Shown: positions 6,751 to 64,000, numbered from the stretch's first letter. The stretch is DNA of 64,000 nucleotides from Polyangia bacterium (GCA_046351595.1 JAXLYE010000005.1:788735-852734), one strand, 5' to 3'. Numbers and translations: made by a program. Notes: generated by a model from the sequence alone, not told the origin.

Positions 6751-6765
6751 GTCTCTCTCCTGTCT

Positions 6766-6814: not shown

Positions 6815-6925
6815 GTTGCGCAGGCTCCGAGGAGCTCGACAAGCAGAGAGTACATATGGGACGCTGGGCGCAATAGGTCCAAAAAGTGGCTCTCATCGTC
6901 CTACTGATAGGACAATGAAGCCGTC

Positions 6926-7831
6926 ATGCAGGACCTCAACGATCTCTACTTCTTCGTCCAGGTCGTGGATCACGGCGGGTTTGCGCCGGCCGGCCGCGCG
7001 CTCGGCGTGCCCAAGTCCAAGCTGAGCCGGCGCCTGCTGCTCCTGGAGGAGCGCCTCGGCGTGCGCCTCGTCCAGCGCTCGACCCGCCGCTTCGCGGTGA
7101 CCGAGCTCGGGCGGACCTACTACGGCCACTGCAAGGCCATGCTGGTCGAGGCCGAGGCCGCGCAGGAGGCGATCGATCGGACGCGCACGGATCCCTGCGG
7201 CATCGTGCGGGTGACCTGCCCGGTCGCGCTCCTGGACACCCGCGTCGGCGAGATGCTGGCCGCGTTCATGGCCCAGAACCCGCGCGTCGAGGTGCACCTG
7301 CAGGCCACCAACCGCCGCGTCGATGTCGTCAGCGAGGCGGTGGACGTGGCGATCCGGGTGCGGCCGCCGCCGCTCGAAGACAGCGAGCTTTTGACGCGGG
7401 TGCTGGCCGATCGAGGGCAGTGCCTGGTCGCCAGCCCCGGCCTGCTCGCGTCCGCGCAGGCGCCGCGTGTGCCGACCGACCTGCGCCGCTTCCCCAGCCT
7501 GGCCCTGGGCGCTCCCGAGAACGAGCACGCCTGGCACCTGCTCGGACCCGACGGCGCGCAGGCCGTGATTCCGCATAGGCCGCGCCTCGTCACGCGCGGC
7601 ATGTTCGCGCTGCGCGCCGCGGCGCTCGCGGGCGTCGGGGTGGTGCAGCTGCCGACGATGATGGTCGGTGATCTGCTGGCCCGCGGCCAGCTCGTGCGCC
7701 TGCTGCCGGGCTGGGCGCCGCAGCGCGAGATCGTCCACGCGGTGTTCGCGACGCGCCGCGGCCTGCTGCCCTCGGTGCGGGCCCTGCTCGACTTCCTCGC
7801 CGAGCGGTTCCGCGAGCTGCAGGAGGACTGA
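6926..7831 (+). CDS. LysR-family transcriptional regulator.
   Basis: N-terminal HTH (LNDLYFFVQVVDHGGFAPAGRALGVPKSKLSRRLLLLEERLGVRL) plus a LysR substrate-binding domain. It has the classic divergent arrangement with a neighbouring enzyme gene. Confidence 0.85.
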   Translation: MQDLNDLYFFVQVVDHGGFAPAGRALGVPKSKLSRRLLLLEERLGVRLVQRSTRRFAVTELGRTYYGHCKAMLVEAEAAQEAIDRTRTDPCGIVRVTCPVALLDTRVGEMLAAFMAQNPRVEVHLQATNRRVDVVSEAVDVAIRVRPPPLEDSELLTRVLADRGQCLVASPGLLASAQAPRVPTDLRRFPSLALGAPENEHAWHLLGPDGAQAVIPHRPRLVTRGMFALRAAALAGVGVVQLPTMMVGDLLARGQLVRLLPGWAPQREIVHAVFATRRGLLPSVRALLDFLAERFRELQED

Positions 7832-12645: not shown

Positions 12646-12651
12646 GTAGCC

Positions 12652-13947
12652 GTGCGCGGCGCAGTCCAAGTCTTTGAGCACCAGCGGCTCGCGATCGGAG
12701 CGCGCTGCCGCACCAGCCTTCTCGGCACGGAGATCGAGTTCACGCGCGCGCACTTCGAGGCGCTGACCCGCTACGCGGAGCGGCACACCTCGCCGCCGTT
12801 TTTCATCCGCCACCGCGCGATCGTCTTCAAGCAGTACGTCGGCGTGGTCCAGGTCGGCGGCCTGACGATCGAGATCCTGCCGAAGGTCGATCGGGAGCCC
12901 GCGGGCGCGGATCCGCAGCCCAAGCTGTGGCGGAATCTTCTGCTGCAGATGCTGCGGCTCTGTCCGCAGCTCGGCCTGCGCGAGCTGCGGCGGGCCCAGC
13001 TCGGGATCGAGCCGGAGGATCTGCTGGACCTGTACGTCGCGCGCTTCCTTGTGGAGGTGGAGCGCCTGCTGCACGAAGGGCTCGCGCGCAGCTACCGGAC
13101 GGTCGAGCAGGACCGCACCGCGTTCTGCGGCCGGCTGCTCGTCGTCGAGAACCTGCGCAGGAACCTGGTCCACGCCGAGCGCGTCTACGTCGCCACGCAC
13201 GAGCTGGGACCCGATCGACTAGAGAACCGCATCCTATGGCAGGCCTTGCGGGTGCTGAGCGGGCTGCGCCTCCGCAGCGCGCTCGCCGAGCGTGCGCAGC
13301 AGCTGCTGCGCGAGTTTCCTCCGGTCGGCACACGGGCCGTGTCGAGCGAGGACTTCGCGCGGATCGCGCCCGGCCGCCACACCGACCGCTACGAGGAAGC
13401 GCTGGCGCTGGCGCGCCTGATCCTCTTGCACTACTGCCCGGCGCCCAAGGCCGGAGCCGCGGACACGCTGGCGCTGCTCGTCGACATGAACCGGCTGTTC
13501 CAGGGCTTCGTGCTGGCGGTGCTGCGGCGGGTCGCTCCTCCAGGCTGGTCGGTCGACGGCCGCGCGCACGCGGACTTCTGGCCCGACGGAGCGGACGAGC
13601 CCAAGCGGCTGCTCCCGGACATCGTGCTGCGGCGTGATGGGAAGCCGGCGCTGATCGTCGACACCAAGTGGAAGCTGTCGGACGGGCAGTGGCCGTCGGA
13701 CGCGGATCTGCGCCAGGTCTTTGCGTACGGCGAGTACTTCGGCGCTCCGCGCGTGGCGCTCTTGTATCCGGCGCGCGGCCAGCAGCCTCCGGGGCGCACC
13801 GGCCGGTTCCTGAGCCGCGCGCTGCACGGCGAGATCCACCACCTGGACCTCTTCGTCGCGGGCGCTGGGCCGGAGCGGCTCGACGCCAGCCGGGTCGGTG
13901 AGCGGCTGTGGCGGCAGCTCGTCCCGGGGACGCTGACCGATCGGTAG
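12652..13947 (+). CDS. mcrC: McrC-family PD-(D/E)xK endonuclease subunit.
   Basis: It lies 7 bp downstream of mcrB. LPDIVLRRDGKPALIVDTKWK is the D...D-x-K catalytic motif. Length 431 aa. The start is GTG according to the ORF track. Confidence 0.8.
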   Translation: MRGAVQVFEHQRLAIGARCRTSLLGTEIEFTRAHFEALTRYAERHTSPPFFIRHRAIVFKQYVGVVQVGGLTIEILPKVDREPAGADPQPKLWRNLLLQMLRLCPQLGLRELRRAQLGIEPEDLLDLYVARFLVEVERLLHEGLARSYRTVEQDRTAFCGRLLVVENLRRNLVHAERVYVATHELGPDRLENRILWQALRVLSGLRLRSALAERAQQLLREFPPVGTRAVSSEDFARIAPGRHTDRYEEALALARLILLHYCPAPKAGAADTLALLVDMNRLFQGFVLAVLRRVAPPGWSVDGRAHADFWPDGADEPKRLLPDIVLRRDGKPALIVDTKWKLSDGQWPSDADLRQVFAYGEYFGAPRVALLYPARGQQPPGRTGRFLSRALHGEIHHLDLFVAGAGPERLDASRVGERLWRQLVPGTLTDR

Positions 13948-14772: not shown

Positions 14773-15335
14773 ATCAAGGCAGCTCAGAGTGTCTTGGCTT
14801 TATCGGCGCACCAGCCGCTTGCGCCGCACCACCTGCGGTCTGCTTGATCCCTGCAGCAGGCCGGGCGCTCCCGCCTGCCCGCGGGGCAGCGCCGCAGCAG
14901 ACGGCCCTTGATCGGAGCGCTCATACTCCGCGAACGGATGGATGTAGCCGACGCGGAGGAGACGCCGCTCGAGCTCGGGGTCATCATTAGGACTCCGAGT
15001 GGTTAGGTTCCTTGTTTAGAGCCATGATTGCTCGCCTACGGCATTCACCGCCCTTGGCATTCAGGCTGGAGCGCCGGAGGCCAGAGCAGCCTTCTGTGAC
15101 TGTCGGACCTTCTCGGAGGCAACGTCGGCATCTAGCCGTAGCCGGCGACGGCATCCGTGCTCTGCGCGCCTGGCGGCAGGTCGCGCTCACGCGTATCTTG
15201 TGGCGGCATCGCCGGCAGGGACCTGGCCAAGTCTGCCGGCCGGCGCTGCCGGGTCGGGAGGGACCAAGGGCGATCGCCTCGGCATCCAGGTTGCTTCGTG
15301 ACCCCTGCAGCCGAACGAGCAAGGGAGCCACGAGC

Positions 15336-17948
15336 GTGCAGCACAGAGGCCGGGTCTTCAGATGGGTTTGGGTCGCTGCGCTCGCTGCTGCGCTGTGGCT
15401 GTCCTCACTCCTCTTCAAGGGGGTTCCTGAGCGCCCCGCTTCGCCGCCCAACCCGGTGCGGCAGGCGCTGCGGCTCTGCAATGATCCGATTCTGCGGAAC
15501 CAGCCCGCGCAGAGCGCCGCCGCATGCGAGCTGGTGGCAGCGGCGGAGCCGGACGAGCCGAGACAGCCTGGCGCCTACGTGCGCGCGCTCACCGTGCTCG
15601 GCCACCTGCACGATGTGCACATGGCGCTCGCCACCTACGAGCGCGGGGACTTTGTGCTGCTCCGGCGGAGCCAGCGGAAGCCGCTGACCAAGACGGCCCC
15701 GTCTCCCCCCGAAGAGCATCTCCTCGGGCTGGCGCGCGCCCTCTCGGCGCTGCAGGCGTCGCCGGGACCGGAAGGCGGCGGTCCTGATCTGTACCAGGCC
15801 GTTCTCCAGCAGCTCGGAGAGAGCCCGAGCGCGACCCAGCTGAGCAACCTGTCGCTGTTCTTTCTGCAGGACCCGCGCTCCTTCGAGCTCTCCCGCGTGC
15901 TCGCGCTGCAGGCCTTCGATCGCGGACTGCGTACCGGCGGGTCTCGGAGCCGGATGGAGGCGCGGATGCTGGCGAACCTGGGGCTCATCCTTGCTATGGG
16001 AGGGTACGAGGACAGGGCGCTTCGGCAGTACGAACTGGCGCTGAAGATCTATCGTAGCTGGCCCGAAGATCCCGACGTACCGATCCTCCTGAACAACATG
16101 GCCCTGCTCCAGGCGAGGTGTGCGGATCCCGATGGGGCCGACACGCTCTATCGCCAGGCGAGCGCCCTGGTCGAGAAGCAGGATATCGAGGGGCGAACGC
16201 TCCGCTCGCTGATCCTGATGAACCAGGCCGCCCAGGCTGTCGCGCGCGGGCGGCTTGTGGATGCGGTGCCGGTGCTGGAGCAGGTCGCGTCGCTCCAGGA
16301 GTCGCTCCTTCGTGCGTCACGCAGCGAGCAGCGCATCCAGGCCGTGCTGATTCAACAGGAGTCCGTTCAGCAGTTCATCTACGGGCTGCTGCTGCGGCCT
16401 GGCCCCGTGCCGGAGCGCCTGGCGCAGCTCGCCCTCCGCCTCAGCCTCACCTTCAAGGGAAGTACGGCGGAGGCCAGCGCGCGCCGCGCCGCACCGGACG
16501 ACCCCGAGCTGCGCGCGCTACAGACCGCGTGGGACAGCCTGCACGCCGAGCGCGAGCACCTCTTGTTCAGCGGTGCCAGAGAGTCGGACGCAGCGCAGCG
16601 ATCCGCGCGCCGGCAGGAGCTCGATCTGCGCATCCAGAAGCTTGAGCACGAGCTCTCGGTGGCGTCCAGAACGCTTGCACCTGACTGGCCGCAGCTCGAG
16701 GACATCACGGAGTCTGTCGCCGTCAAGCTCCCTGCGGGCAGCGCGCTGCTGGAGGTGATCGTTGTGGTTCCCTATGTCCTTGACGAAGAGGCCAGGGGCG
16801 CATCTGCCGGGCGCTGGGGCCAGGCTCACTATGTGGCGCTCCTCTTGACCCCGGACCGAGACGTTACGGTCCACATGCTCGGAACCGAGGAGGAGATCGA
16901 TCGCCGGGTCGCAGAGCTCCTGCTGCGGCTCCAGGATCCCAGCAGTGATCCCCTGCCGGCCGCGCATGCGCTGCACCAGCAGGTGATGCAGCCGCTGATG
17001 CAGCGCCTGCACAGAGTGTCCCGGATCTACCTGTCGCTCGACGGCGCGCTCAACGCGGTTCCCATTGCCGCGCTCCATGACGGAGCGCAGTACCTGCTGC
17101 ACCGCTTCAAGCTCAGCTACCTGTCGTCTGGCCGTGAGCTCCTGCGCACTCCGGATGCCACGTCGAAGGGGCCGGCTCTTATCCTGGCCGATCCCGTGCC
17201 GCTCATGCCAGCTGCCGCAGACGGTGCAGCGGGCTCGATCTACTCGCAGCTCGGTGGGCTGCCGCGGCTTCCTGGAGCTCGCCGAGAGGCGGAGCGGCTG
17301 GCAGGGCTCTTATCCAGGGCCACGGTCCTGCTGGGAGCGGAGGCCTCCGAGTCCGCGCTCAAGCGGGCCGGCGCGCCGCCCATCTTGCACATCGCCACGC
17401 ACGGCGCCTTCTTGGAGGGAGCGCTGCGGATCCAGGCGTCCGCGCGCGGGCTCCGCCCGCTGACCGGGCCGCTGCAGGGACAGGATGTGGACCGGGTGCT
17501 GGGCCGCGGAGCCGAAGAGCCGCTGATCCGCTCGGCGCTCGTGCTGTCTCGCGGCCTGCCTGACAAGACGCCCGTCGATGAGGATGGGCTGGTCACGGCC
17601 GAGGAGGTACGCGCTCTGAACCTGCGCGGCACCGAGCTTGTAGTGCTCGCGACCTGTGAGAGCGGACGCGGCACAGCGAGCGCGGGTCAGGGCATCTACG
17701 GACTCCGGCGCGCCTTCTTCGCAGCGGGCGCCCAGACCCTGGTCGTCAGCCTGTGGCGGATCGCTGACGGAGAGACCAGTGAATTGATGGCTCGGTACTA
17801 CCAGAAGCTGGTCAAGGAGCGGAGGCCGCGAGCCAGAGCGCTGCAAGAAGCCGAGCAGGAGCTTCAGCGCAGGAGGCCGCACCCGTACTACTGGGCGCCG
17901 TTCGTCGCCATCGGTCAGGACGCACCGCTCAGCCTGAGCAGCCGTTGA
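15336..17948 (+). CDS. TPR-repeat protein with a C-terminal CHAT (caspase-like) protease domain.
   Basis: The C-terminus carries the CHAT hallmarks LHIATHG, ATCESG and YYWAPFV. The N-terminal roughly 500 aa is TPR-like. A GTG at 15336 preceded by an AAGGGAG RBS is the most plausible start. The ORF is open from 15012. Confidence 0.8.
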   Translation: MQHRGRVFRWVWVAALAAALWLSSLLFKGVPERPASPPNPVRQALRLCNDPILRNQPAQSAAACELVAAAEPDEPRQPGAYVRALTVLGHLHDVHMALATYERGDFVLLRRSQRKPLTKTAPSPPEEHLLGLARALSALQASPGPEGGGPDLYQAVLQQLGESPSATQLSNLSLFFLQDPRSFELSRVLALQAFDRGLRTGGSRSRMEARMLANLGLILAMGGYEDRALRQYELALKIYRSWPEDPDVPILLNNMALLQARCADPDGADTLYRQASALVEKQDIEGRTLRSLILMNQAAQAVARGRLVDAVPVLEQVASLQESLLRASRSEQRIQAVLIQQESVQQFIYGLLLRPGPVPERLAQLALRLSLTFKGSTAEASARRAAPDDPELRALQTAWDSLHAEREHLLFSGARESDAAQRSARRQELDLRIQKLEHELSVASRTLAPDWPQLEDITESVAVKLPAGSALLEVIVVVPYVLDEEARGASAGRWGQAHYVALLLTPDRDVTVHMLGTEEEIDRRVAELLLRLQDPSSDPLPAAHALHQQVMQPLMQRLHRVSRIYLSLDGALNAVPIAALHDGAQYLLHRFKLSYLSSGRELLRTPDATSKGPALILADPVPLMPAAADGAAGSIYSQLGGLPRLPGARREAERLAGLLSRATVLLGAEASESALKRAGAPPILHIATHGAFLEGALRIQASARGLRPLTGPLQGQDVDRVLGRGAEEPLIRSALVLSRGLPDKTPVDEDGLVTAEEVRALNLRGTELVVLATCESGRGTASAGQGIYGLRRAFFAAGAQTLVVSLWRIADGETSELMARYYQKLVKERRPRARALQEAEQELQRRRPHPYYWAPFVAIGQDAPLSLSSR

Positions 17949-32797: not shown

Positions 32798-33190
32798 ATG
32801 GTACGGATCGCGAGCTACACCCTCGTGGATCGGATCCACGATGGGGCTGAGACCTGCATCTACCGCGCTGTCCGCGATGCGGATCGCCTGCCCGTCATCC
32901 TGAAGACCCCGAACGTCCCGTATCCCAGCCGGCGTCAGCTCGCGCGCCTGCAGCACGAGTACGCGATGCTGAAGAAGGCGGGCGGCCGGGGCGCGGTCCT
33001 GCCCATCGAGCTGATCCAGACCGCGGACGTCGTGGCGCTGGTCACCGAGGACTGGGGCGGCCAGACGCTGCACAGCCTGATCGCAGCCGGCGCCCTGGGC
33101 TGGCGCGAGGCCGCAACCCTGGGCCTGCACATCGCCGACGCGCTGGCCGCGCTGCATGACCAGGGCATCCTGCACAAGGATCTCAAGCCG
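32798..33190 (+). pseudogene. N-terminal kinase-like domain of a large multidomain sensor. It is interrupted after ...ILHKDLKPQ.
   Basis: Y.L...I......IYRAVRDADRLPVILK...HKDLKPQ is the N-terminal pseudokinase/kinase module of kinase-AAA-GAF-HisKA proteins. The ORF then degenerates into Arg-rich sequence. The continuation is found at about 40759. Confidence 0.65.
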
Positions 33191-33278
33191 CAGGCGGTCG
33201 CCGCTCGCTGTCTCCGTCGGGGCAGCGGGCGGGGGGCGGTAGGGCGGAGCGGCTGCGGACGGTTTGTGCGGGGCGCCG

Positions 33279-34706
33279 CTAGGCGTCGTAGGTGCGCTTC
33301 CAGATCTCGCCGTGGGCGCCCATGAAGGTGACGGTGAGCTCGCGGCGGATCGGATCGGCGCGGAACATCGTGTAGTTCTTCTCGCCGATGACCTGATCGA
33401 ACTGGCCGGTTGGGAGCGACGGTGAGCGCGCGTCCGTGCCGCCCGGTCCCATCAGCACCTCGTGCATCTTGCGGCGCGGGCCCGACGGACCTACGCCGCC
33501 GATGCTGCCGAAGTGCAGGTCGCCCGAGAGCCACCACACGCCCTTGAGGTCGCGCGCCTCGATGAAGTCGAGGATCTCCTCACGCTGCGCGGGGTAGCCC
33601 TCCCACTTGTCCGCCTCGCCCGCGGCCGAGATCGGGAAGTTCGAGATCGGGACCGAGGTGACCACGAACTTGAAGACCGCGGTCGAGCGCGCGAGGCGGT
33701 CCTTCAGCCACGCCATCTGCGCCGGCGAGATGAACTGCGCGCGCGCCGTCTCGCGCGTCGAGGGCTTGCGCTCCGAGCGCGCGTCCAGCACCAGCACCTC
33801 GAGCGTCTTGCCCCACACCAGGCTGCGCCAGATGCGGTCCGGCGCGGCGGTGTTGCGGCGCAGCGCGCGGTGCTCGAAGAACGCGCGGCGCGCGGCGTCG
33901 AGGCGGGCGGCGGAGATCGTCTCGGGGTTCCAGTTGTTGAGGATCTCGTGATCGTCCCAGGTCAGCACCATGCCCGTCGAGCCGTGCAGCGCGCTCATGC
34001 CGGCCGCGCCCCAGGCGTAGCCGTACTTGACGCGGTACTGCGCGAGCGTGGTCGCGTCGGTCCCGGAGTCGGTGTAGACGTGGTCGCCGCAGTGGATGAA
34101 AAAGTCGAGGTTGCGGCGCGCGGCGTCGGAGAGGACGGGGTAGGGCGCGCTCACCTGGTGCGTGCACGAGGTGCCGCCGAAGGTGACGATCTCGCGCGCG
34201 GTGGGCTCGAGCGCGGCGCGCACGCGACCGAACGGGCTGCGCGCCACGACCTTGCCGCTGCCGTCGGTGACATAGAAGGCATAGCGGTAGCGCTTGCCGC
34301 CCTCGAGGCCGGCGAGGTCGACGTGCATGAAGCCGGCGTCGCCCTGCTCGGCCGTGGTCAGCGCGCGCGAGGCCACGGCCATGCCGCCGCCGCCCTCGGC
34401 CTCGAGCTGCACGCCGAGGGTGCCGCTGCCGCTGTACTTCGTCCACAGCATGGCGCGTGCATCCGTCGCGTCACCGGCCATCACGCCGTAGGGAAAGTCC
34501 GCGGCGCGGACCGGGACCGAGTCCAGGTCGAGGCCGGGGACTGCGGCGGCGCGCTGCAGGTCGACCTCGGGCCTGGGATCGAGCCCCGGCGCGGGAGGCG
34601 TGTCGCCTCCGGGCTCGACATCCGGGCTGCTGAGGGGGTCGCTGCAGGCGCTGGCGGCCAGCGCGGCCGAGATTTGCAGGAAGCTTCGTCGGGTCGTCTT
34701 CGCCAT
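33279..34706 (-). CDS. PhoD-like alkaline phosphatase / phosphodiesterase (Tat-secreted).
   Basis: A twin-arginine signal (RRSFLQISAALAASAC) is present. Calcineurin-like/PhoD motifs are present: FIHCGDHVY, TWDDHE and WLSGDLHF. Confidence 0.8.
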   Translation of the reverse strand: MAKTTRRSFLQISAALAASACSDPLSSPDVEPGGDTPPAPGLDPRPEVDLQRAAAVPGLDLDSVPVRAADFPYGVMAGDATDARAMLWTKYSGSGTLGVQLEAEGGGGMAVASRALTTAEQGDAGFMHVDLAGLEGGKRYRYAFYVTDGSGKVVARSPFGRVRAALEPTAREIVTFGGTSCTHQVSAPYPVLSDAARRNLDFFIHCGDHVYTDSGTDATTLAQYRVKYGYAWGAAGMSALHGSTGMVLTWDDHEILNNWNPETISAARLDAARRAFFEHRALRRNTAAPDRIWRSLVWGKTLEVLVLDARSERKPSTRETARAQFISPAQMAWLKDRLARSTAVFKFVVTSVPISNFPISAAGEADKWEGYPAQREEILDFIEARDLKGVWWLSGDLHFGSIGGVGPSGPRRKMHEVLMGPGGTDARSPSLPTGQFDQVIGEKNYTMFRADPIRRELTVTFMGAHGEIWKRTYDA

Positions 34707-34962
34707 GGGAGCCGCACCATATCACCCGGCTGTGCCCACAGAGCAATCTCGGAGTCCGCGAGCGCGCTCCCGCGGCCGGACGGACTGCGGAGGGAGACGG
34801 TGATACACGGCTCGGCCGTGAATTTTAGGAGCAGCAAGCATACCGACAGGCGGGCTGCCGTGTCTTCGCTTGCCGCACGACGAATACGGTCCGTACGAGG
34901 TGCAGGTCCAGCCGGACTGCTGGACCGGGCAGAGACAGCGTTCGGAATCCCTCCGCGCGATC

Positions 34963-37900
34963 TCAACCCGCGACAGACTCGGATGCGGAATGCGTGTGTA
35001 CGCGCAGGAGCCGGGCGGCGTGCCCCTCGGCTCGCGCCCGTGCCGCTGCGTCGGGAGCGTCTGCGCGGATGCGGGACAGCTGCTGCGCCGCTTCGTGCCG
35101 CAGCGCCTGCGCCCGCGCCGCATCGCCGGCCGCTTCGAAGGCTTCCGCCGCGGCCAGCCACAGCGGGACCGCGAGCGCCCCGGCGCCGTCCTGCTCACCG
35201 AGTACCCGCAGCGCCGCGGTCGCCGTCGCCACCGCCGCGTCGAGCGCGCCCTGCCGCCGCAGCGCGGTGAGCAGCGGGATCTGTGTCTCGAGCCAGTGCA
35301 GCGGCCAGCCGGCGTGCTCGGTCGCGGCGCTGCGCGCCTCGTGCTCCGCGCGCTCCAGATCGGCCGCGGCCAGAGCGAGCCACGCCCTGGCGCACCGCGC
35401 GATCCCGCGCTGCATCGCCGTGGATCGCCCGGATGTGAGCACGCGCTCGCACAGCTCCGCGGCCTGCCGCGCGAGCTCGGTGCCTGCCTGCAGGCCCGCC
35501 TGCTGCGACAGCCCGAGCGCGCCGCTCGCCGCCACCTCGCACGCCGGCAGCTCCTCGGTCAGCGCCTCGGCCAGCGCCAGCGCGTCGCGCAGCACCGGTG
35601 CGGCCGACGCGCCCTCGCCGAGCGCGCACAGACTCGCGGCCTCAAGGGCGCGCGCCAGCACCAGGCTGCGCAGCTCCGAGGCCTCCTCGAACGCCGCTGC
35701 TGCGCGCCGCGCCGCATCGAGCGCGACCCACGGCTGCGGCGCGAAAAAGAGGATCAAGCGGGCGCGCGCGTACAGCGCCCAGCCGCGCGCCCGCAGCGCG
35801 CTCATGGCGAGCGGACCGGCGCCCGTCGTCTCGCGGCTCCGCTCGATGCAGCCGGTCAGGTGCGCCAGCAGCCGCTGCGCCGGGGGCCGCTGCCCGCAGC
35901 CGGCCAGCGCGATCGCCAGCGTGGCGCAGCTCTCGGCGTGCGCGCCCAGGGCGAGCGGGTCCGGCACCGCAGCCTCGATGCGCGCGGCGAGCTGCAGCAG
36001 CGGCTGCGGCTCGTGCGCCGCCGTGGCCAGCACGCACAGCGCGCGCGACGCCGCCAGGGTGCCGCCCGAAAGCAGCGCCACCGCCTCGGTCGCGAGCTCG
36101 GCGGCCTGCTCGAGCTCACCGCGCCGCAGGCGGATCCAGGCGGCGAGCGCGCGCAGCCCGCCCAGCACCTCGCCGCCGGCGCCGCAGCCGATCCCGAGCT
36201 GGCACAGGGCCAGCGCCGCGTCGGCATCGTAGCCCTCGAGCAGGCGCTCGGCGGCGTGCAGGTACAGGGCCGCTGCGCGCTCGGACTCGCCGCCGCGCTG
36301 GTAGTGCCCGGCGATCAGGGCGGTGTCGCTCTCGCGCTGCGACTCCAAGAAGCGCGCGGCGGTGCGGTGCAGGCGCGCGCGCTCCGCATCGGTGAGCAGC
36401 TCGTAGGCGGCGTCTCGCAGCGGCGCGTAGCGGAAGCGCAGCTCGGGGTCGTCGGCGCAGCGGCTCTCGGGGACCGGCACCAGCACCTCGGCATCGACGA
36501 GCGCCTGCAGCGCCTGCGTCACCGCCGCGGGCTCGACGTCGGGCAGCAGCGCCCGCACGCACGCCGGGCACAGCGTCCCCCCGAGCACGCTCGCCGCGCG
36601 CAGCACCCGGCGCTGCAGGCGATCGAGCCGCGCCATGCGCGCCTGGCCGATCGCCAGCACGGTCTCGGGCAGCTCCTCGCCCCGGCCGGCGGCGGCGGCG
36701 CGGATCAGCTCCTCGATCAGCAGCGGGCTGCCCGCGGACTGCTCGACGATGCGCAGCACGGTCGGGGAGCTCGCGGGCAGCGCCAGGGTGGCGGCGACCA
36801 GGCGCTCGGTGGCGCGGCGGCTCAGCCCGCGCAGGCGGATCTCCTGCACCGCGCGCTGCCGCCACAGCCCCGGAAAGCGCTCGAGCAGCTCGGGGCGGGC
36901 GGTGACCAGCACGAACAGCGGCGAGTCCGCGAGCGCCCCGAGCAGGTGCTCGATCAGGCGCACCGTGGCCCCGTCGAGCCACTGCCCATCGTCGATAAGC
37001 AGCAGCACCGGCTGGCTCTGGCACTCGGCGCGCAGGAGCCGGGCCAGCGCGGACGCGACCTGCGCCTGCCCGCGCCGCGGATCTTCGTGTGCGTCGCTCG
37101 GGCTGCTCGCGGGCGGGCTGGCGGTGGCGACGCCGCACAGCTCCGCGAGCAGCGCGAGCGTCGCCTCGGCCTGCTGCGGCGGCAGGCATCGGCCCAGGCG
37201 CGAGAGCAGCGCGCTGCGGCGCTGCGGCAGCGGCTCCGCCGGCGAAACCCCGCACAGCGCGTGCAGCGCCTGGACCAGCGGGGCCAGCGGCGGACCCCCG
37301 AGCTCGTCGCAGCGAGCGCTCAGGCAAAGGAGCGGCTTGGGCTCGCCGCGGAGCTTGCGCAGAAGCTCGCTCCGCAGCCGCGACTTGCCGATGCCCGGCT
37401 CGCCGATGACCAGCGCCGCCCGCGCCGCCGGCTCGCTCAGGCACTCCTCGAGCAGCGCCTCGAGCAGCGTCAGCTCGCGCTCGCGCCCGAAGAACGGCGT
37501 CGGGCGGCCGAGCAGCGGCCGGCCCTCGTCCGGGCGGGTCGACAGGCCGAGCAGCACCGAGCCGCCGGCCCCGTCCTCGGCCAGCTGGAACCGGGCATCC
37601 AGCAGGCCCGCGGTCACTTCGTCGAGCCGCACCCGCGGGGGCGCTCCGGCGGCGAGCGACCCGGCGGCGAGCGGCCCGGCCGGGACCGCGCGGCTGCCTG
37701 CCGGCTCGGTGCGCGGCTCGCGCGTGCATACGGCTTGCTGCGGCAGCAGCGCGAGGGCGCGCTCGATCGCGCTGCCGACCCGCAGCGCCGGGCCGAGCAC
37801 GCCGCGACCGGTGGCCACCGCGACGTCCGCGCTCGGCAAGAGCTCCTGCAGGCGCAGCGCGCAGCGGGCCGCCTGCGCGACCTGATCCGTAGCGCTCTCG

Positions 37901-38560
37901 TTCGGCACAAGGACCGCGACCAGCGTCCCGTCGAGCAGCTGCTCGACCGTGGCCCCGAGTGACGCCAGACCTAGTGACTCTGGATCGGGCACGAGCTCCG
38001 AGGTCGCCACCGCGCCGGCCGGTGGTGTCTCCTGCGCCGAAAGGGGCCCGGGCGCCGCGGCCGGATCGCGCGCCACCACCACGCTGACGAGCGCCAGCTC
38101 CTGCTCGGTCGGCGCCGCCGCCTGCCGCGCCGGCAGCGCGCCGCCCGCGTCCGCAAGGTGCTCGAGATCCGGCAGCGCATCGAGGCAGTACACGAGCGCT
38201 GCGCCGTCGGCCGGTCGCAGCCGCGGGTCCTTCTCGAGCAGCCGGCTGAGCAGCCCCGCCAGCTCGCGCGGGACGTCGGGCCGCAGCGCGCGCACGAACG
38301 GCGCCGGATCGAACAGCAGCTTCGCCAGCAGCGCCGTGACGTGGTCGGCCGTGAACGGCGGGCGCCCGGTCAGGCACTCGAACAGCACGGAGCCCAGCGA
38401 GAACACATCGGCGGCCGGCGTGAGGTCGGTGAGGTAGCGCGCCTGCTCGGGAGCCATGTAGTCGGGCGTGCCGATGAGGGCGTTGGTCGCGGTCAGCGGG
38501 TCCACCAGCGAGGCCGCGCGGGCGACGCCGAAGTCCAGCACCACCACCTGGTCGAGCTGG
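34963..38560 (-). pseudogene. 3' portion of a Ser/Thr kinase - AAA ATPase - TPR gene. It begins inside the catalytic loop (..PSNLFLRNGQ..VVLDFG).
   Basis: The minus-strand ORF begins at a TAG immediately before PSNLFL. DFG, APE and subdomain XI follow, then Walker A (IGEPGIGKSRL) and extensive TPR/helical repeats. The matching 5' part is at 39480..39976. Confidence 0.7.
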
Positions 38561-39479
38561 CCGTTGCGCAGGAACAGGTTGCTCGGCTAACTGTCCGCCC
38601 CGAGGGAGCCGGGGCGGCAAACCGTCCGCAGCCCGTCGGTGGCGCGGAGCGGACGGTTTGCGCCGCGCGGCGGTTCCCGGTGACCTGAGCCTGCCCCGCC
38701 GAGACGTGCGCGCGGCGGGCGGCCGTGCGCCCCGCGCCGCGGTGGTGTACCGTCCGCGCTGTGACGATGAGCACGGCGCTGCGCAAGTACACGGTCGAGA
38801 GGCGCGAGGAGCCCAGCGGGGCGCGGCACTATGTCACGCCGCTGGGGACGCTGCCGAGCGTGACGACCATCCTCAAGGGCTCTACGAGCTGGGGCTTCTA
38901 TCAGCGGACCTCGGTGCACGCAGCGCAGGCCCGGCGCCGCGGTCATGACTTCCATGAGGACATGGCGGCGTTCCTCGAGCAGGGGCGTCCCAGCAGCTCG
39001 GCGCATTTTCCGTCGGTGCTCTCGTTCCTGCGGCGCCTCGGCAGCGTGCGGCTCGTCGAGGGCCACGTCTGGCACCGCGACGGGTTCGCCGGAGCCGTGG
39101 ACTGCGTCGCCGAAGTGGATGGGGTGCTGAGCGTGATCGACTGGAAGACCAGCACCGAGCCCCGCTCCCCCGGAGCGTTCGACGCGGCGCAGATGCAGGT
39201 CGCCGCCTACCGCGCCGCCGTCCAGTCCTTGTACGGCATCGACATCCCGCGCGGGTTCGTCGTCGTCGCGCTCCCCAGGGGCGACGCGCAGGTGCTACCG
39301 ACCGAGAACCTCGACGGCGAGTACGAGGGCTTCCTGGCTCGACTGGCGAGATTCCGCGCGCGGCCGGTGCGCTCCCGAGCGTGGGTCGGGCGATAGGCAG
39401 CAGCGGCCTGGGCGCGCACGGTCCGTGACTCCCGCGGCGGCCGGTCCCGCACCCTGCACGCAGCCGTTCCGCACAGCGA
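38561..39479. mobile_element. Roughly 0.9-kb cassette inserted into the kinase catalytic-loop codons (HRDIKPS|NLFL). It carries a single RecB-family nuclease gene and is flanked by 7-bp repeats AGCCGAG.
   Basis: The N-terminal kinase half ends ...IIHRDIKPS at about 39480 and the C-terminal half starts PSNLFL at about 38560. aagccgagt and tagccgagc are the two junction sequences. Confidence 0.4.
38767..39396 (+). CDS. RecB-family PD-(D/E)XK nuclease (Cas4/YqaJ-like fold, no Cys cluster).
   Basis: Motifs GHDFHED, VDCVAEVDG (motif II Asp), VIDWKTS ((D/E)xK) and QMQVAAY (QhxxY) are present. About 210 aa. It is on the opposite strand to the kinase it interrupts. Confidence 0.65.
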   Translation: MSTALRKYTVERREEPSGARHYVTPLGTLPSVTTILKGSTSWGFYQRTSVHAAQARRRGHDFHEDMAAFLEQGRPSSSAHFPSVLSFLRRLGSVRLVEGHVWHRDGFAGAVDCVAEVDGVLSVIDWKTSTEPRSPGAFDAAQMQVAAYRAAVQSLYGIDIPRGFVVVALPRGDAQVLPTENLDGEYEGFLARLARFRARPVRSRAWVGR

Positions 39480-39976
39480 CGCCACCGACGAGCGGATCGC
39501 GCCTCGACCGTACTCGGCTTGATGTCGCGGTGGATGATGCCGGCGCGGTGGGCGGGGGCCAGGGCGGCGGCGGCGGCACGCACGAGGCGCACGCTCTCGG
39601 CGAGGCTCAGCGGGCGCGCGGCCAGGCGGTGGCTGAGATCCTCGCCGGTGAGCCACTCCATCACCAGGTACGGGCGGCCGGCGCCCGGTCCGGCGTCGCT
39701 GAGGTCGCCGATCCCGTGGGCCACGTAGGCCACGATGCCGGGGTGCTGCAGCGTCGCCAGGACCTCGGCCTCACGGCGGAACCGCTCGGCCGCGGCCCGG
39801 TCGCCCCGGTCCCCCCGTTCGGCGAGTTCGCCGTGCAGGATCTTGACCGCGACCTTCTGGCCGGTGCGCCGATCGTGCGCCGCGTAGACGCTGCCCATGC
39901 CGCCGCGCCCCGCCTCGTGCAGGAGCACGAAGCGACCGCCGATGAGGGCCTCGGTGCGCAGGGAGGTTCTCGACAC
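39480..39976 (-). pseudogene. 5' portion (N-lobe through HRDIKPS) of the kinase-AAA-TPR gene.
   Basis: LGRGGMGSVYAAHDRRTGQKVAVK, AERFRREAEVLATLQHPGIV, YLVMEWLTGEDL and HRAGIIHRDIKPS are present. The frame then runs into unrelated sequence. A GTG at about 39976 is the likely start. Confidence 0.6.
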
Positions 39977-40084
39977 GACTCCGACCTGTCCGCACCCTGG
40001 CAGGCGGCCTGGGGGAGGGCCCGGTGTGCGGTCGATCTCATTAGAGCACGCCTGTCCGCCAGGGCGCGAGCACCGAGAGCCGAT

Positions 40085-40176
40085 GCCCTGCCGATGCGCC
40101 GCCGATGTGCCGCCGATGTGCCGCCGATGTGCCGCCGATGCGCTGCCGATAGGCTGCCGATGCGCCGGCGATGCGC
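40085..40176. repeat. 12-bp tandem repeat (GCCGATGYGCCG), about 7.5 units, in the divergent region between the kinase 5' fragment and the small membrane protein gene.
   Basis: ccgatgcgccgccgatgtgccgccgatgtgccgccgatgtgccgccgatgcgctgccgataggctgccgatgcgccggcgatgcgcc is read directly. Confidence 0.7.
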
Positions 40177-40284
40177 CCGCGCTGTCGCGGCAAGGCTCCC
40201 GGAAGACGACGGCTCCGGCTCGCCGTTGGCACCGCGGTCGGTGGCTGCCTTGACGGCGGCGGCGAGCGGCGCGCACCATGGCGC

Positions 40285-40671
40285 ATGTCCGGTCCCTTCC
40301 CGCTCCGTCGCGCGCTGGGTGCCGTGGCCCTGCTGGTGCTGCTGTGGCCCGGGCCGGCGGCGGCGAGCCCGGTCGCGATCGGGCCGCTCGGCGGCGTGTT
40401 CCTGCTGTGCGTGCTCGCCTTCCCGGTCTGGCTCATCAGCCTGGCCGCGACGCTGGTGAGCGCGGTGAAGGGCCGGGTGAACCTCGTCGCCCGGATCCTC
40501 GCCGTGCTGGATCTCTGCGCGGTGCTGGTGCTGCTCGTGGCCGCGCTCGCGGATCCGCCCAAGACCTCCGATGATCTCGTCGTGGCCTGCCTGATCGGCG
40601 GCCTGCCGCTCGCGGTCGCGGCCTGGACCCTGTGGATCTGGACCCACCCGCGCGCCAGACCGCGGCCGTAG
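40285..40671 (+). CDS. Small polytopic membrane protein (about 128 aa, 4 TM).
   Basis: Hydrophobic segments LGAVALLVLLW, GGVFLLCVLAFPVWLISLAATLV, ILAVLDLCAVLVLLVAALA and LVVACLIGGLPLAVAAWTLWIW. No family is recognised. Confidence 0.4.
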   Translation: MSGPFPLRRALGAVALLVLLWPGPAAASPVAIGPLGGVFLLCVLAFPVWLISLAATLVSAVKGRVNLVARILAVLDLCAVLVLLVAALADPPKTSDDLVVACLIGGLPLAVAAWTLWIWTHPRARPRP

Positions 40672-40758
40672 ACCTTGCGGCCCGTCGGAGCGGGCGCGCG
40701 CCGCGAAACCTTCCGCGGGCCGCTCCCGAGTCAGCGCGGACAGGCTGGCGCGAGCCCG

Positions 40759-45778
<5,020 letters not shown>

Positions 45779-53559: not shown

Positions 53560-53678
53560 CCGGTACGGAATCGCCTGATTTAGGAATCCTCCTGATGCAA
53601 AAGGAGCCGCAAGGCAGACTCCGTCCGCGTGCAAAGGGAGTACGGGCGCGCGCGCCCCGGACCGTTACTCTTGAGAGT

Positions 53679-55454
53679 ATGGACGACAAGTTCGCCGTCG
53701 CCCGCACGCTGCGAGAGATCGGGCTCCTCCTCGAGCTCAAGGGCGAGAACCGCTTCCGGGCCCGCGCCTACGAGACGGGAGCCCGCGCGCTCGAGGAGCT
53801 GCGCGAGGAGATCCCGACCCTGCTCGCGGAGCACCGCCTGACCGCGCTCCCCGGCATCGGGCCCGCGCTCGCCTCGGTGATCTCGGAGCTTGCGACGACC
53901 GGGCGCTGCTCGCAGCTGGATCGGCTGCGGCAGGAGGTGCCGCGCGGCGCGCTCGAGCTGGCCGAGCTGCCGGGGCTGAACCTGAAGAAGATCCAGCAGC
54001 TCGCGGCGGGCCTGGGCATCGACAGCGTGGCGTCGCTGAAGACGGCGTGCGACACGGGCCGGCTGACCGAGGTCAAGGGCTTCGGGCCCAAGACGCAGCA
54101 GAAGCTGCTCGACAACATCGCGCGCAGGGAGCGGCGCGACGAGCGCGTGGTGCTGGTCGATGCGCTGGCCGAGACCGAGCCGCTGGCCGCGTACCTGCGC
54201 AGCCACGCCGCGGTGCACAGGCTCGAGCGGGCCGGCGCGCTGCGCCGCTGGGCCGAGACCGTGACGGACGCGGAGCTGGTCGCGGCCAGCCCGGAGCCCG
54301 AGACCGTCATCGAGCACCTGCTCGCGTATCCCAAGGTCGTGCGCACCGTGTCGCGGCGGCCGGGCGCGGTGACCGTGCGCCTGTCGAGCGGGCTCTTTGT
54401 CGCGCTGCACGTCGTCGCGCCGAGCGAGCTCGCGGCGGCGCTGTGGCGGCTGACCGGCAGCCCCGAGCACGTGGCGCGGCTGGAGGCGCTGGCCGCGATG
54501 CGCGGCGTCGACCTGGACGCGACGCTCGAGCTGGCGCCCGCGGACGAGCCCAAGGGCGAGCCAGAAGGCGAGTCAAAAGGCGAGTCCAAGGGCGGGTCCA
54601 AAGACGACGTCGAGGCCGTGGAGCGAAGCTTGTACGCGCGGCTCGGCCTGTCCTATATCGCGCCCGAGCTGCGCGAGGATCACGGTGAGATCCAGGCCGC
54701 AGCCGACGGCAGCCTGCCGCAGGATCTGGTCACGCTCGCCGACATCCGCGGCATGACGCACTGCCACACCGTGTACTCGGACGGCAAGCACACCGTCGAA
54801 GAGATGGCGCGCGCGGCCGAGGCCATGGGCATGCAGTACCTGACCATCACCGATCACTCGCCGAGCGCGCACTACGCCGGCGGCGTGCAGCTCGATCGGC
54901 TCAAGCGGCAGTGGGACGAGATCGCGCGCGTGCAGGAGCGCGTGAAGATCCGCCTGCTGCGCGGCACCGAGAGCGACATCCTAGCCGACGGCGCGCTCGA
55001 CTACCCGGACTCCATCCTCGAGAAGCTCGACGTCATCATCGCCAGCATCCACTCGCGCATGAAGATGGACGAGGACGCGATGACGCGGCGGCTGGTGAGC
55101 GCGATGCGCCTGCCGTTCTTCAAGATCTGGGGGCACGCGCTCGGTCGGCTGCTGCTGCGCCGCGAGCCCTTCGCCTGCCGTGTCGAAGAGGTGCTGGACG
55201 CGGTGGCCGAGTCGCGCGCCGCCATCGAGATCAACGGCGATCCGCACCGCCTCGACCTGGCGCCGGAGTGGACGCGCCGGGCGCGCGCGCGCGGCATCCG
55301 CTTCGTCATCTCGACCGACGCGCACTCGATCCATGGCCTTTGCAACCTGCGCTACGGCGTGCACGCGGCGCGGCGCGGCTGGCTGCGGCGCGGCGAGGTC
55401 CTGAACACGCTGGCCGCGGCCGAGTTCGCGGCGGTCGTGAAGCCCACCGGTTGA
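53679..55454 (+). CDS. polX: Family X DNA polymerase with a C-terminal PHP phosphoesterase domain (PolX).
   Basis: N-terminal HhH/8-kDa module (LPGIGPALASVISEL) and a Pol beta-like palm. The C-terminus reads GMTHCHTVYSDG...ITDHS...DAHS, which is a PHP domain. The start at MDDK is placed from the ORF-track frame. Confidence 0.85.
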   Translation: MDDKFAVARTLREIGLLLELKGENRFRARAYETGARALEELREEIPTLLAEHRLTALPGIGPALASVISELATTGRCSQLDRLRQEVPRGALELAELPGLNLKKIQQLAAGLGIDSVASLKTACDTGRLTEVKGFGPKTQQKLLDNIARRERRDERVVLVDALAETEPLAAYLRSHAAVHRLERAGALRRWAETVTDAELVAASPEPETVIEHLLAYPKVVRTVSRRPGAVTVRLSSGLFVALHVVAPSELAAALWRLTGSPEHVARLEALAAMRGVDLDATLELAPADEPKGEPEGESKGESKGGSKDDVEAVERSLYARLGLSYIAPELREDHGEIQAAADGSLPQDLVTLADIRGMTHCHTVYSDGKHTVEEMARAAEAMGMQYLTITDHSPSAHYAGGVQLDRLKRQWDEIARVQERVKIRLLRGTESDILADGALDYPDSILEKLDVIIASIHSRMKMDEDAMTRRLVSAMRLPFFKIWGHALGRLLLRREPFACRVEEVLDAVAESRAAIEINGDPHRLDLAPEWTRRARARGIRFVISTDAHSIHGLCNLRYGVHAARRGWLRRGEVLNTLAAAEFAAVVKPTG

Positions 55455-61690: not shown

Positions 61691-62072
61691 TCTTACCGTC
61701 GGCGTCGGCTTAATTTAGCAGGCAGCCGAACGACGCTCTCCTGGCCATTAACAGTAGGATTAATTACGAACTTGTAGTTGCATGTAGGCTGCAAGCGTGA
61801 GCGGACATTACCGGCCGTAAGGCTGCGCACTGATACGGAACGCTTGGATTTGTGAGCACTCACCGTCGGGCGCGATTGTGAGCGGTCAGTCAGCGTGCGC
61901 CTTGGAGCAAACGAAAGATGCGCTGGGAACATTGAGACTGGAAATAGCTCGCTCACCGACGGAGGTCAGAGCGATGAGGGCGCAGCCAAGGAAAGGAGCA
62001 GCGCCAAGTGGATGTCAGCTGGGCGGCTTACTTGCCGAGACTGCCTACATCATGGTGGCCACTGCCTTCCCT

Positions 62073-64000
62073 TCATATGGCGCCGCCTGTCTTATACTTA
62101 AAACTTCTGTTTTCAAAAGCTGGCCGTGTTCCCTCTAACACATCGACTATATGCCTACTAATGATTCCATCTTCTAGTGAGCCGCTATCATAACGCACTT
62201 CATGTCCATTAGTCTTATCGATCGAAGTAAAGATGACCTGCTCCGAATCGCATACTACCGCGATGTTGGGATTGTGAGTTATGACAAACAGTTGCCTTCG
62301 CTCCTTTGCCGCTTTCATGCACGGAACTAACACGTTCTTAATTGACTGGTTATCAAGGTTTTCTTCAGGCTGATCAATAATGAGCGGACTACTCCCCTTA
62401 TCAATAAGCAAGTAGAAGACTAAAAGCAGAAGTCCACGTTCACCGGGCGACAGTTCTTGAAGTCCTTTATTTCCGACTCGGAGCGCATATCTTGGTTCAA
62501 GGTATTCCATTTCATAAAGAAAATTATATAGGCCCTCAATCGAAACGTTCTTTTTTAGCTGCCGCTCAATAGGATGTCCGGTCGATCTCTTGCTGGGAGC
62601 ACGCCTATCTTCTTTCAAAGCTCCCATGATGTCTTCGATAATGTCAATTGCAGATGTTTCCTTACCAAAGATCCCTTCCTGTAACATGTCATCAAGGCGC
62701 TTGCGGCTCTCGTCCACTCCGCAGAACGAACCACCCACGCCATGATTGATATGACCTAAGAATCTCTCTGCAAACGGAGAACTATCAATGATAACCTCAA
62801 AAGATACTCGGAAAGCGTTGAAGGCAAGCTGTGATTTATTCTTCTGCTCGCGCTCGATAAAATCGAGAACTGGTCCATAGTATTCTCGGTAGACATTGGC
62901 TCGTTTCGTTACTTCTTGATAGATTCTTGTGGCCGTTATGCGCCGTTCGCTGTAAAGGGACTCCAACTCTTCAGGATAACGTTGTGCAAGTTCAATCTGA
63001 TGCTTATAGTAAAGCAGCGAGTCAGGCGTGTCTTGACTGCCAAGTATCTGCTTCCGTCGCTTCTCCCAATTGCTAAGCTCTGTGAGATACCGCTGATAGC
63101 CTTGATTCGGCGCATCCAGGGCAGCTTGCAAAGTAGTCTGCTCTGCCTCGAGGGCTGCTAATTGCCTGGCAAAGCCTTGAGGATCCTGAGAGTCTAGAAT
63201 AGCAGTAAGACTAAGTATGCGTTTGTCGGTTTCCTGTAGAAGCTCTTCAACCGGATGCTTCTGCACCTTGGCTTCAATCAACCCCGAGTGCTCGAACTCT
63301 AACTCAGCCGTCTCTTTTTCTACAAAGGCTAGAACATCGAGGTAGTAGTTGTGAAATTTATTCAGCCTCTCAAGTATTTTCGCCGCCCTCTCGCGCCTGA
63401 CGTATTGCGAAGCCAGCTCTCGCTCATGCTCTGCTTGCCTTTCGAGCAAATCCTTTACGCTGTCTTTCAGGGCATCGATTTTTTTGATGACCTCAGTGCT
63501 TTCAGCGGACATGGACTGATCCGCTCTAGGGTCACGCACTTCTACCGGGCGGCTTGCCTCGTGTATACTTAACTCTAGTTCCTTTGCCTTCACTTTCTCA
63601 TCTAAGAAAATGGCAATAGCTTCAGTGGATTTTTGCTCAAGGACTACTATTTTATGGTTAATGTCTCGAAGGTGGCGCTTTAGGCTGGAAGTGGTGCGAA
63701 TTATCTCATCAGTCCGATAATCGATGAGTTCTTCAAGGGTGGCTTTGCCGAGACGCAGCGGCGGCTCTACATGAGAAAAGATGACCCGGTCTAGCTCGTT
63801 GCGAAACTCCTTCTGTGCTTCCTCCTCATGCTCATTGCACAGTTTTTCTAGATACCCTTGTGGCAGATAACGAACGCGCTCAAGCTCATCTTGACTGCTC
63901 GAGCAAGCTAGCTGCCGTTCGAACTCCTCCGATGTGCTCCACACGGCGTTAGCGGCAAAATCTTCCGAGCGATTCCTTCTCAAACCAGCATCACGCCGTT
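62073..64000 (-). CDS. SMC-like ABC-type ATPase (coiled-coil, RecF/RecN/SbcC-like). It is 5' partial: the Walker A region lies beyond the window end. It is probably a defence or DNA-repair ATPase.
   Basis: The C-terminus carries the ABC signature LSPGERGLLLLVFYL, Walker B LIIDQPEENLD, a D-loop and an H-loop FVITHNP. A long heptad/coiled-coil middle is present. The ORF stays open to the window edge. Local GC is about 45-50%, against about 70% background. Confidence 0.75.
   Translation of the reverse strand, partial: RRDAGLRRNRSEDFAANAVWSTSEEFERQLACSSSQDELERVRYLPQGYLEKLCNEHEEEAQKEFRNELDRVIFSHVEPPLRLGKATLEELIDYRTDEIIRTTSSLKRHLRDINHKIVVLEQKSTEAIAIFLDEKVKAKELELSIHEASRPVEVRDPRADQSMSAESTEVIKKIDALKDSVKDLLERQAEHERELASQYVRRERAAKILERLNKFHNYYLDVLAFVEKETAELEFEHSGLIEAKVQKHPVEELLQETDKRILSLTAILDSQDPQGFARQLAALEAEQTTLQAALDAPNQGYQRYLTELSNWEKRRKQILGSQDTPDSLLYYKHQIELAQRYPEELESLYSERRITATRIYQEVTKRANVYREYYGPVLDFIEREQKNKSQLAFNAFRVSFEVIIDSSPFAERFLGHINHGVGGSFCGVDESRKRLDDMLQEGIFGKETSAIDIIEDIMGALKEDRRAPSKRSTGHPIERQLKKNVSIEGLYNFLYEMEYLEPRYALRVGNKGLQELSPGERGLLLLVFYLLIDKGSSPLIIDQPEENLDNQSIKNVLVPCMKAAKERRQLFVITHNPNIAVVCDSEQVIFTSIDKTNGHEVRYDSGSLEDGIISRHIVDVLEGTRPAFENRSFKYKTGGAI

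Follow-up and report, generated by a model that had tools for sequence, protein, structure and literature searches.

How a single nuclease gene came to lie within the catalytic-loop codons of a protein kinase gene, and whether it can leave them again, is the question raised by a 64,000-nt stretch of the metagenome-assembled genome (MAG) of a Polyangia bacterium (a soil myxobacterium, Myxococcota; GCA_046351595.1 JAXLYE010000005.1:788735-852734). This whole stretch is referred to as the window, and all coordinates are positions in it. The interrupted gene, kinase B, harbours an insert of 924 bp (38589-39512; the cassette) that contains one gene only, in a surrounding of 70–79 % GC, and is itself part of a 7.6-kb insert in a second kinase gene, kinase A. 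The original prediction had placed a nuclease cassette exactly in the catalytic-loop codons, flanked by AGCCGAG; both the position and the flanking repeat were confirmed, with the kinase frame restored upon removal. The reading favoured here, tentatively and at somewhat less than even confidence, is that the 924-bp unit is a small cassette which integrates and excises at a short core sequence, the recombinase probably being supplied in trans.

On the plus strand, the junction on the side of the kinase C-terminal part (C part) reads GGTTG-CTCGGCT-AACTGTCC and that on the side of the N-terminal part (N part) CGACCGTA-CTCGGCT-TGATGTCG. The 7-bp direct repeat CTCGGCT (AGCCGAG in kinase sense) is thus present at both junctions, for which the chance probability is about 1e-4. 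In kinase sense, the N part stops at ...AGIIHRDIKPS, and the C part opens with (stop codon)PSNLFLRNGQLDQVVVLDFG. Deletion of the cassette together with one repeat copy yields a single frame of 1461 aa that contains HRDIKPSNLFL and only the terminal stop. The N part covers positions 4–126 of the Pfam model Pkinase, and the C part positions 126–253, followed by AAA_16. The features are as follows:

39976, minus strand: probable GTG start of kinase B, placed by comparison with P0097/L111 (see below)
39520-39976, minus strand: N part of kinase B (N lobe to HRDIK; Pkinase 4–126)
39513-39519: direct repeat CTCGGCT, N-part side, read from the sequence and identical in L002 (see below)
39397-39512, plus strand: right end of the cassette, non-coding, 116 nt, read from the sequence
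38767-39396, plus strand: nuclease gene, predicted MGME1-type PD-(D/E)XK exonuclease of 209 aa (MFO0577422.1)
38589-38766, plus strand: left end of the cassette, 178 nt 5' of the nuclease gene, with two hairpins
38582-38588: direct repeat CTCGGCT, C-part side, read from the sequence
34963-38581, minus strand: C part of kinase B (C lobe from N-L-F-L, AAA_16, TPR-like)

An intact homologue of kinase B, P0097 (1307 aa, encoded on Logan contig L111), is 62 % identical over the entire 755-aa query and reads IIHRDLKPSNLFL / IIHRDLKPSNLFLRGG across the site without interruption, the next matches being only about 46 % identical. Since this homologue spans both parts, they derive from one gene, as the original prediction had assumed. 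In the NCBI annotation, the region 34963-38547 is a separate 1204-aa 'AAA family ATPase' (MFO0577421.1), and the split of kinase B is therefore invisible in the public record.

The same arrangement was found in two further sequences. An ENA contig from a separate project (L002), which represents a sister lineage, is collinear with 36880-42614 at 88–92 % nucleotide identity and has the same cassette junctions; a Logan contig (L001, SRR26348423_260061) is 100 % identical through both of them. Accordingly, the junction repeats are reproducible, and the insert is no assembly artefact.

Insertion predates the split from L002, which corresponds to a synonymous divergence (dS) of about 0.12. Neither lineage has stop codons or frameshifts in the kinase B halves, and both halves are under purifying selection: the ratio of nonsynonymous to synonymous divergence (dN/dS) versus L002 is 0.36 for the N part (p = 0.008) and 0.36 for the C part (p = 5e-7), next to 0.29 for the C part of kinase A and 0.23 for the nuclease. 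With 0.26, the nuclease gene has 2.35 times the dS of its flanks (kinase parts and a membrane open reading frame (ORF), 0.10–0.14; Fisher p = 1.3e-4), at a GC content of third codon positions (GC3) of 0.90 as compared to 0.90–0.95 in the flanks. This excess could reflect gene-to-gene rate variation; it could also mean that the cassette lineages diverged before the host lineages did, as independent site-specific acquisition would bring about.

Nesting within a larger insert, likewise part of the original prediction, was also borne out. Kinase A (plus strand) is interrupted between HKDLKPQ and N by 7,578 bp that are bracketed by a 12-bp direct repeat, and their removal restores a kinase-AAA-TPR-GAF-histidine-kinase protein of 1796 aa. 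The right junction of this outer insert is also present in L002; a look-up of the small membrane ORF, aimed at a Logan contig across this junction, gave no entry. Its features are:

33182-33193: repeat CTCAAGCCGCAG, left copy, end of the kinase A N part (32798-33193)
33194-40771: outer insert with a PhoD-like phosphatase gene (33279-34706, minus strand), kinase B with the cassette, and a small membrane ORF (40285-40671, plus strand)
40672-40771, plus strand: right end of the outer insert, non-coding, resembling the cassette left end including AAACCTTCCGC-N19-GCGGACAG
40772-40783: repeat CTCAAGCCGCAG, right copy, before the kinase A C part (40784-45778)

Both repeats (in parentheses) contain AGCCG at homologous codons, i.e., ATC-A(AG-CCG-AG)C in kinase B versus (CTC-AAG-CCG-CAG) in kinase A, so that one crossover point is compatible with both events. 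Under random insertion into genes of 4–5 kb, such an overlap has a chance probability of about 0.4 %.

Several indirect signs suggest a small mobile cassette of an as yet undescribed kind. Besides the junctions shared with L002 and the selection on both kinase B halves, they comprise the ends of assembled contigs and the relatives described below. Logan assemblies are built at k = 31; k-mers observed a single time are discarded, and the contigs are maximal unbranched paths (PMC12424806). L001 corresponds to 38559-39542 and thus extends beyond either end of the cassette by exactly 30 nt (k-1). A contig that stops k-1 outside both junctions implies that another sequence in the sample shares the flanks up to the junction and diverges thereafter, and an uninterrupted kinase B allele suggests itself as the simplest candidate. 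The 30-mer of the left flank (PSNLFLRNG codons) is gene-specific, and no intact close paralogue of kinase B was present among the best 120 matches of a protein search. The expected sequence of the empty kinase B site is GTTGCTCGGCT directly followed by TGATGTCG, that of the cassette circle junction CGACCGTA-CTCGGCT-AACTGTCC, and that of an outer circle or tandem junction GAGAGCGAC-CTCAAGCCGCAG-GCGGTCGCC. A further Logan contig (L113, SRR26348422_402481) corresponds to 33182-35057, so that its start coincides with that of the outer repeat. This start would fit a circle or tandem junction, since the right repeat copy is preceded by C and not T, or a copy in another kinase.

The closest non-orthologous relative of the nuclease (P0003, 68 % identity) is encoded on Logan contig L142 (SRR30909894_683305; 1-1001), the first and last 30 nt of which are identical. 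Identical terminal 30-mers are the Logan criterion for a circular contig (PMC12424806), and no other locus among L001-L141 has them. The unit amounts to 971 bp, circular or in tandem, and consists of the nuclease gene and 341 non-coding nt, in which a 9-bp inverted repeat (TTCCGACGG / CCGTCGGAA) is located. L142 starts 180 nt 5' of the ATG, close to the 178 nt of the cassette left end in the window. As a separate observation, L111, on which the intact homologue of kinase B is encoded, breaks off within the VHRDIKPEN codons of an adjacent kinase gene (6426-7025); short-read graphs of myxobacteria break in catalytic-loop DNA, which is a caveat on contig ends located there.

More distant relatives of the nuclease gene (46–56 % identity) occur in unrelated contexts. 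Two pairs of loci (L103/L110 and L105/L109) each share about 82 % nucleotide identity in the nuclease gene; homology ends 20–130 nt upstream and about 25 nt downstream of it, and the neighbouring genes differ. Five Myxococcales MAGs have the gene outside kinases, and it is also present on dozens of cyanobacterial chromosomes; the best matches in a scan of GTDB representative genomes were 52 % identical Myxococcales MAGs, again not in kinases. In one lineage (P0015/P0018; L003-L022, e.g., L013 5628-5998) it follows a methionine aminopeptidase gene and precedes a 42-bp tandem array (GCGCAGATCCGTGCATGGCAGGCTGTCCGCGATCCCGAAGTC), at which most assemblies break. Tandem repeats were also observed near other homologues, namely downstream in L109 and L026 and upstream in L103 and L105.

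The 178-nt left end of the cassette contains two hairpins (38596-38618 and 38617-38661; DNA fold z = -3.2), the larger of which is GCAAACCGTCCGC-N19-GCGGACGGTTTGC. In comparison to L002, 40 nt of its stems and flanks are identical, while 8 of the 19 loop bases have changed; stems kept while the loop drifted imply that they are constrained. Four copies of A(A/C)C(C/T)GTCCGC are located in the left end. The decamer AACYKTCCGC, a pattern defined after its sites were seen, occurs at 33255, 38589, 38620, 38649 and 40707, i.e., five times in 64 kb versus 0.43 expected, and all five sites lie at most 75 nt from a junction of the 0.9-kb or the 7.6-kb insert. Directly 5' of the ATG stands GTACCGTCCGCGC, which is also present in the homologues L105 and L109 in other contexts, so that at least part of the motif probably serves gene regulation rather than marking an element end. 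The cassette termini (right GACCGTA, equal to TACGGTC; left AACTGTC) form a weak inverted match of 5/7. Between the right end of the outer insert (40672-40751) and the cassette left end (38589-38668) an alignment was obtained that was equalled in 5 of 2000 shuffles; other local and semi-global alignments were not significant against dinucleotide shuffles, and common ends of the two inserts are not claimed. The hairpin loop and the right end also form an inverted repeat (38631-44 / 39480-93), which was dismissed as chance because it is not conserved in L002. Neither a sigma-70-like promoter nor an intrinsic terminator was found in the cassette.

Under the favoured reading, a circular form of the cassette would have entered kinase B by recombining, through a short core, with the same AGCCGAG in the Lys-Pro-Ser codons, leaving one core copy at each junction according to attP x attB logic; the reverse reaction would restore kinase B exactly. 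We infer a circular intermediate, ongoing excision and a trans-acting enzyme. The recombinase would most likely be provided in trans, as for integrase-less units that the integrase of an island mobilises, and the exonuclease may represent cargo or an accessory end-processing enzyme rather than a sequence-specific homing enzyme. The 7.6-kb segment would then have arisen in like manner, by another such event at the homologous AGCCG in kinase A.

Several observations weigh against this proposal. No recombinase is encoded in the cassette or elsewhere in 33194-40771, and the only one in the window belongs to a 23-kb island at a different kinase motif (see below). The evidence for excision and circles consists of contig ends, not reads. 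The right flank of L001 is the most conserved kinase DNA, and k-mers of paralogues could also break the contig there; the start of L113 could be due to a synonymous GAT/GAC polymorphism at 33181. The 971-bp circle contains no significant match to a kinase-like attachment site, and no integrated form of it was seen. L105 and L109 have a module in common, and another Logan contig (L107) starts 30 nt outside its left edge (L105 403-433) but reads on through the right edge, which indicates a population breakpoint at the left edge only. The likeness of the insert ends is weak, comprising a 16-mer (6/1000 shuffles) and the one alignment named above (5/2000), from among 8 and 6 tests, respectively. 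A scan of a metagenome collection for AAACCGTCCGC-N19-GCGGACGGTTT returned the L002 contig and otherwise only 27 unrelated terminators of gut bacteria.

The alternative that survives best, though we regard it as rather doubtful, is a one-off illegitimate capture, by a staggered double-strand break or a microhomology template switch, with the cassette immobile since and each kinase half still functional. It would account for the missing transposase or integrase in cis and for an insertion that is old and fixed in two lineages, and the differing repeat lengths (7 and 12 bp) are those expected of microhomology events. That two events would independently hit the same 5 nt of homologous codons is, by contrast, unlikely (about 0.4 %), and capture leaves aside the contig ends lying exactly k-1 from both junctions and at the start of the outer repeat as well as the circular contig of a homologous cassette. 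The host-like GC3 (0.90), a cassette hairpin found nowhere else, and a nuclease family residing in ordinary chromosomal contexts of cyanobacteria and other Myxococcales agree with it, whereas close relatives that share the gene only, with unrelated flanks, do not. That the C part is already annotated by NCBI as an AAA ATPase is in line with a function of its own; purifying selection on a 150-aa N-lobe fragment is hard to explain if this were a dead stub.

Whether the nuclease itself could be the mobility enzyme depends on its family. Judged by its sequence, the protein is a bacterial/phage homologue of the exonuclease MGME1. Residues E98, D112, D125-x-K127 and Q144-x3-Y148 are kept in 31 homologues, in agreement with the predicted motif II D, (D/E)xK and QhxxY; the predicted length of 210 aa has to be corrected to 209 aa. 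A profile of these homologues matches human MGME1 over nearly the full length (E 4e-41), and the PHROG family 298 'exonuclease' is matched by the nuclease with E 4e-30. Pfam yields PDDEXK_1 only (27 bits) and NCBIfam a sub-threshold match to Cas4; no transposase domain was among the Pfam and NCBIfam matches of this sole ORF of the cassette. The AlphaFold (AF2) model (pLDDT 91) has no added domain, and Foldseek places MGME1 structures on top (E about 1e-12, TM about 0.7), with Cas4 and AdnAB nuclease domains far behind. Libraries of defence systems gave weak matches to Cas4 and DruK only, and relatives are encoded on at least 246 viral contigs. While the catalytic E, D, D-x-K and Q-x3-Y are common to the MGME1/Cas4/RecB-domain family, the gene is here located on a mobile-looking cassette; it lacks the cysteine cluster of Cas4 and is not located beside cas genes or a helicase gene. 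MGME1, Cas4 and RecB-type nucleases process free ends of single-stranded DNA (ssDNA), and by homology the enzyme would be an end-dependent ssDNA exonuclease. No nuclease of the MGME1, Cas4 or RecB type is known to act as a homing enzyme.

Mobility driven by the nuclease, either as a homing-type endonuclease or as a nuclease-only transposase cutting HRDxKPxN-coding DNA and thereby spreading its gene to kinase paralogues, is therefore weighed against this family assignment and is considered decidedly unlikely. The nuclease is the sole gene of the unit and under purifying selection, the same site is used in two kinases, and its dS exceeds that of the flanks, as independent site-specific acquisitions would give. 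Nevertheless, it represents a minimal MGME1-type core (E 4e-41) without an added DNA-binding domain, no nuclease gene is located at the ends of the outer 7.6-kb insert itself, and homing by recombinational repair leaves no target repeat. In relatives the gene alone forms the conserved module, and the circular contig holds nothing else; yet no relative at 46–68 % identity, and none of five Myxococcales genomes, has it inside a kinase gene. AACYKTCCGC near the ends of the two inserts only (5 vs 0.43 expected) would suit recognition of the ends, against which stands the motif before the ATG that recurs in homologues elsewhere and looks like gene regulation.

Further copies in kinase genes, for which the original prediction had proposed a search of the genome and its relatives, were not encountered in the MAG protein set or at the loci of relatives examined. 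MFO0577422.1 is located on a MAG contig of 854,962 bp, and its cluster in the MAG protein set has one member on one contig. Searches by tblastn with both kinases revealed no split kinase beside relatives of the nuclease, and a kinase-borne nuclease gene was detected only in the window and at the orthologous locus in L002, so that a single such locus is known. A homing reading is weakened by the exonuclease family, the relatives outside kinases, the single copy and the 7-bp repeat. Of the selfish element originally proposed, a bounded single-gene unit with signs of mobility stands, and the cassette is probably not a homing endonuclease.

A third kinase gene in the window, kinase C, is interrupted as well, and three of the six kinases in the window are thus split:

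5185-28308: kinase C island, splitting the gene between LYE and M, 23,124 bp, 9-bp repeat CTGTACGAG

The kinase C parts are located at 4465-5184 and from 28309 onward, and removal of the island restores a 488-aa kinase. A tyrosine integrase gene (26991-28223) adjoins the right junction; the island further contains McrBC (10816-13947), a CHAT-TPR protein (15012-17948), a GH43 enzyme and an isochorismatase. It is an ordinary integrase-bearing integrative island and looks like a defence island with a kinase gene as attachment site, from which it follows that site-specific elements do land in kinase genes of this genome. Of the predicted pattern of disruptions at LYE, LKPQ and IKPS, all three inserts proved real and AGCCG is common to the two Lys-Pro events; a single shared mechanism was not upheld, since the LYE event is due to the integrase-bearing island.

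Elsewhere in the window, a gene for a family X DNA polymerase with PHP domain (HHH_8, DNA_pol_B_thumb, PHP) was identified at 53595-55454; such an enzyme could fill staggered breaks. Across 62000-64000 the GC content falls from about 0.72 to 0.46–0.50, and the ORF at 62073-63983 (minus strand) matches AAA_21 (AbiEii-like) and SMC_N. This part is probably foreign DNA.

In the cassette, the 7.6-kb insert and the 23-kb island alike, direct repeats bracket the insert and removal restores the gene. The cassette shares interruption of a gene, direct repeats (here 7 and, for the outer insert, 12 bp) and exact restoration with the nifD, fdxN and hupL elements (XisA, XisF and XisC) and with the Bacillus skin element; those encode the tyrosine or serine recombinase by which they are excised, whereas the cassette, located in a myxobacterium and in a kinase catalytic loop, has an MGME1-type exonuclease as its only protein. 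Free-standing homing endonuclease genes (T4 seg/mob; the PD-(D/E)XK enzyme I-Ssp6803I) are intergenic or intronic, belong to sequence-specific families and leave no target repeat. A lone nuclease gene at a conserved target is the common feature; in the cassette it belongs to an exonuclease family, a 7-bp repeat is present, and no other copies were found at the target. Integron cassettes measure about 1 kb and possess one ORF, a hairpin-forming inverted repeat at one end, a circular form and a recombinase in trans. Size, single ORF and hairpin are alike, and a circular contig was seen only for the 68 % identical homologue; unlike integron cassettes, the unit has neither RYYYAAC/GTTRRRY attC boxes nor a G/TT crossover at the junctions, attI is not its target, the insert lies between copies of a 7-bp repeat, and the gene is preceded by an upstream region of its own. 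No match to an attC-like RNA or DNA family was obtained, and integron attC and IS200/IS605-type ends were ruled out by the junction sequence and the target repeat. Insertion sequences and transposons differ in having a transposase, and the repeats here are 7 bp for the cassette versus 12 bp for the outer insert, with termini alike at 5/7 positions. The CR2-sul2 unit, mobilised by the GIsul2 integrase, excises as a circle and integrates at short att cores without an integrase of its own (PMC9376610). The cassette likewise has no integrase, and the sole integrase of the window (26991-28223) belongs to the island at the other kinase motif. The cassette lacks a defining feature of each of these families and is hence grouped with site-specific integrative or gene-interrupting elements in general, without assignment to a single family. 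Literature searches for kinase-targeting elements in myxobacteria gave nothing relevant. A group I/II intron, ribozyme or intein was rejected in view of no Rfam matches, an ORF antisense to the kinase and stop codons at the junction, and so was an inversion between the two kinases at the motif, which gave unclean joints when worked by hand.

Of the explanations considered, a programmed interruption, in which the nested inserts are excised in some cells or under some conditions and thereby switch both kinases on, appears highly improbable; it overlaps with the favoured account of a cassette recombining at a short core. In its favour, both frames are recovered exactly once the inserts are removed, the branch points of the assembly graph coincide exactly with the junctions, and myxobacteria have developmental cell fates. 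Purifying selection on the kinase B halves and the kinase A C part after an ancient insertion would also be expected, but could reflect independent functions of the halves, or divergence predating the insertion if the cassettes were acquired separately. Cyanobacterial gene-interrupting elements lie between direct repeats, in some cases measure no more than about 1 kb, and include variants that occupy one and the same site in orthologues (PMC4874684). All elements covered by that survey encode a recombinase of their own (PMC4874684), which this cassette does not.

Mobile elements usually carry a recognisable recombinase or transposase. If a unit of about 1 kb with an exonuclease gene only truly moves, either a hidden trans-acting system would use kinase catalytic-loop DNA for attachment, or a new nuclease-driven mode of mobility would exist. 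That the cassette belongs to an undescribed class of minimal mobile elements (about 0.93–0.97 kb, with an MGME1/Cas4-like nuclease only, circularising and inserting at a core repeat into the catalytic-loop codons of Ser/Thr kinases) is regarded as quite unlikely at present. In its strongest form, regulated excision would re-create the kinases and constitute a programmed gene-interruption system in myxobacteria. Myxobacterial genomes hold hundreds of such kinases, and this huge paralogous family may offer many cheap, near-identical landing sites, the loss of one among hundreds costing little. As the case shows, a label like 'AAA family ATPase' can conceal that a signalling gene is split. Should excision restore the kinases, a gene-interruption switch would have been reported from the Myxococcota for the first time.

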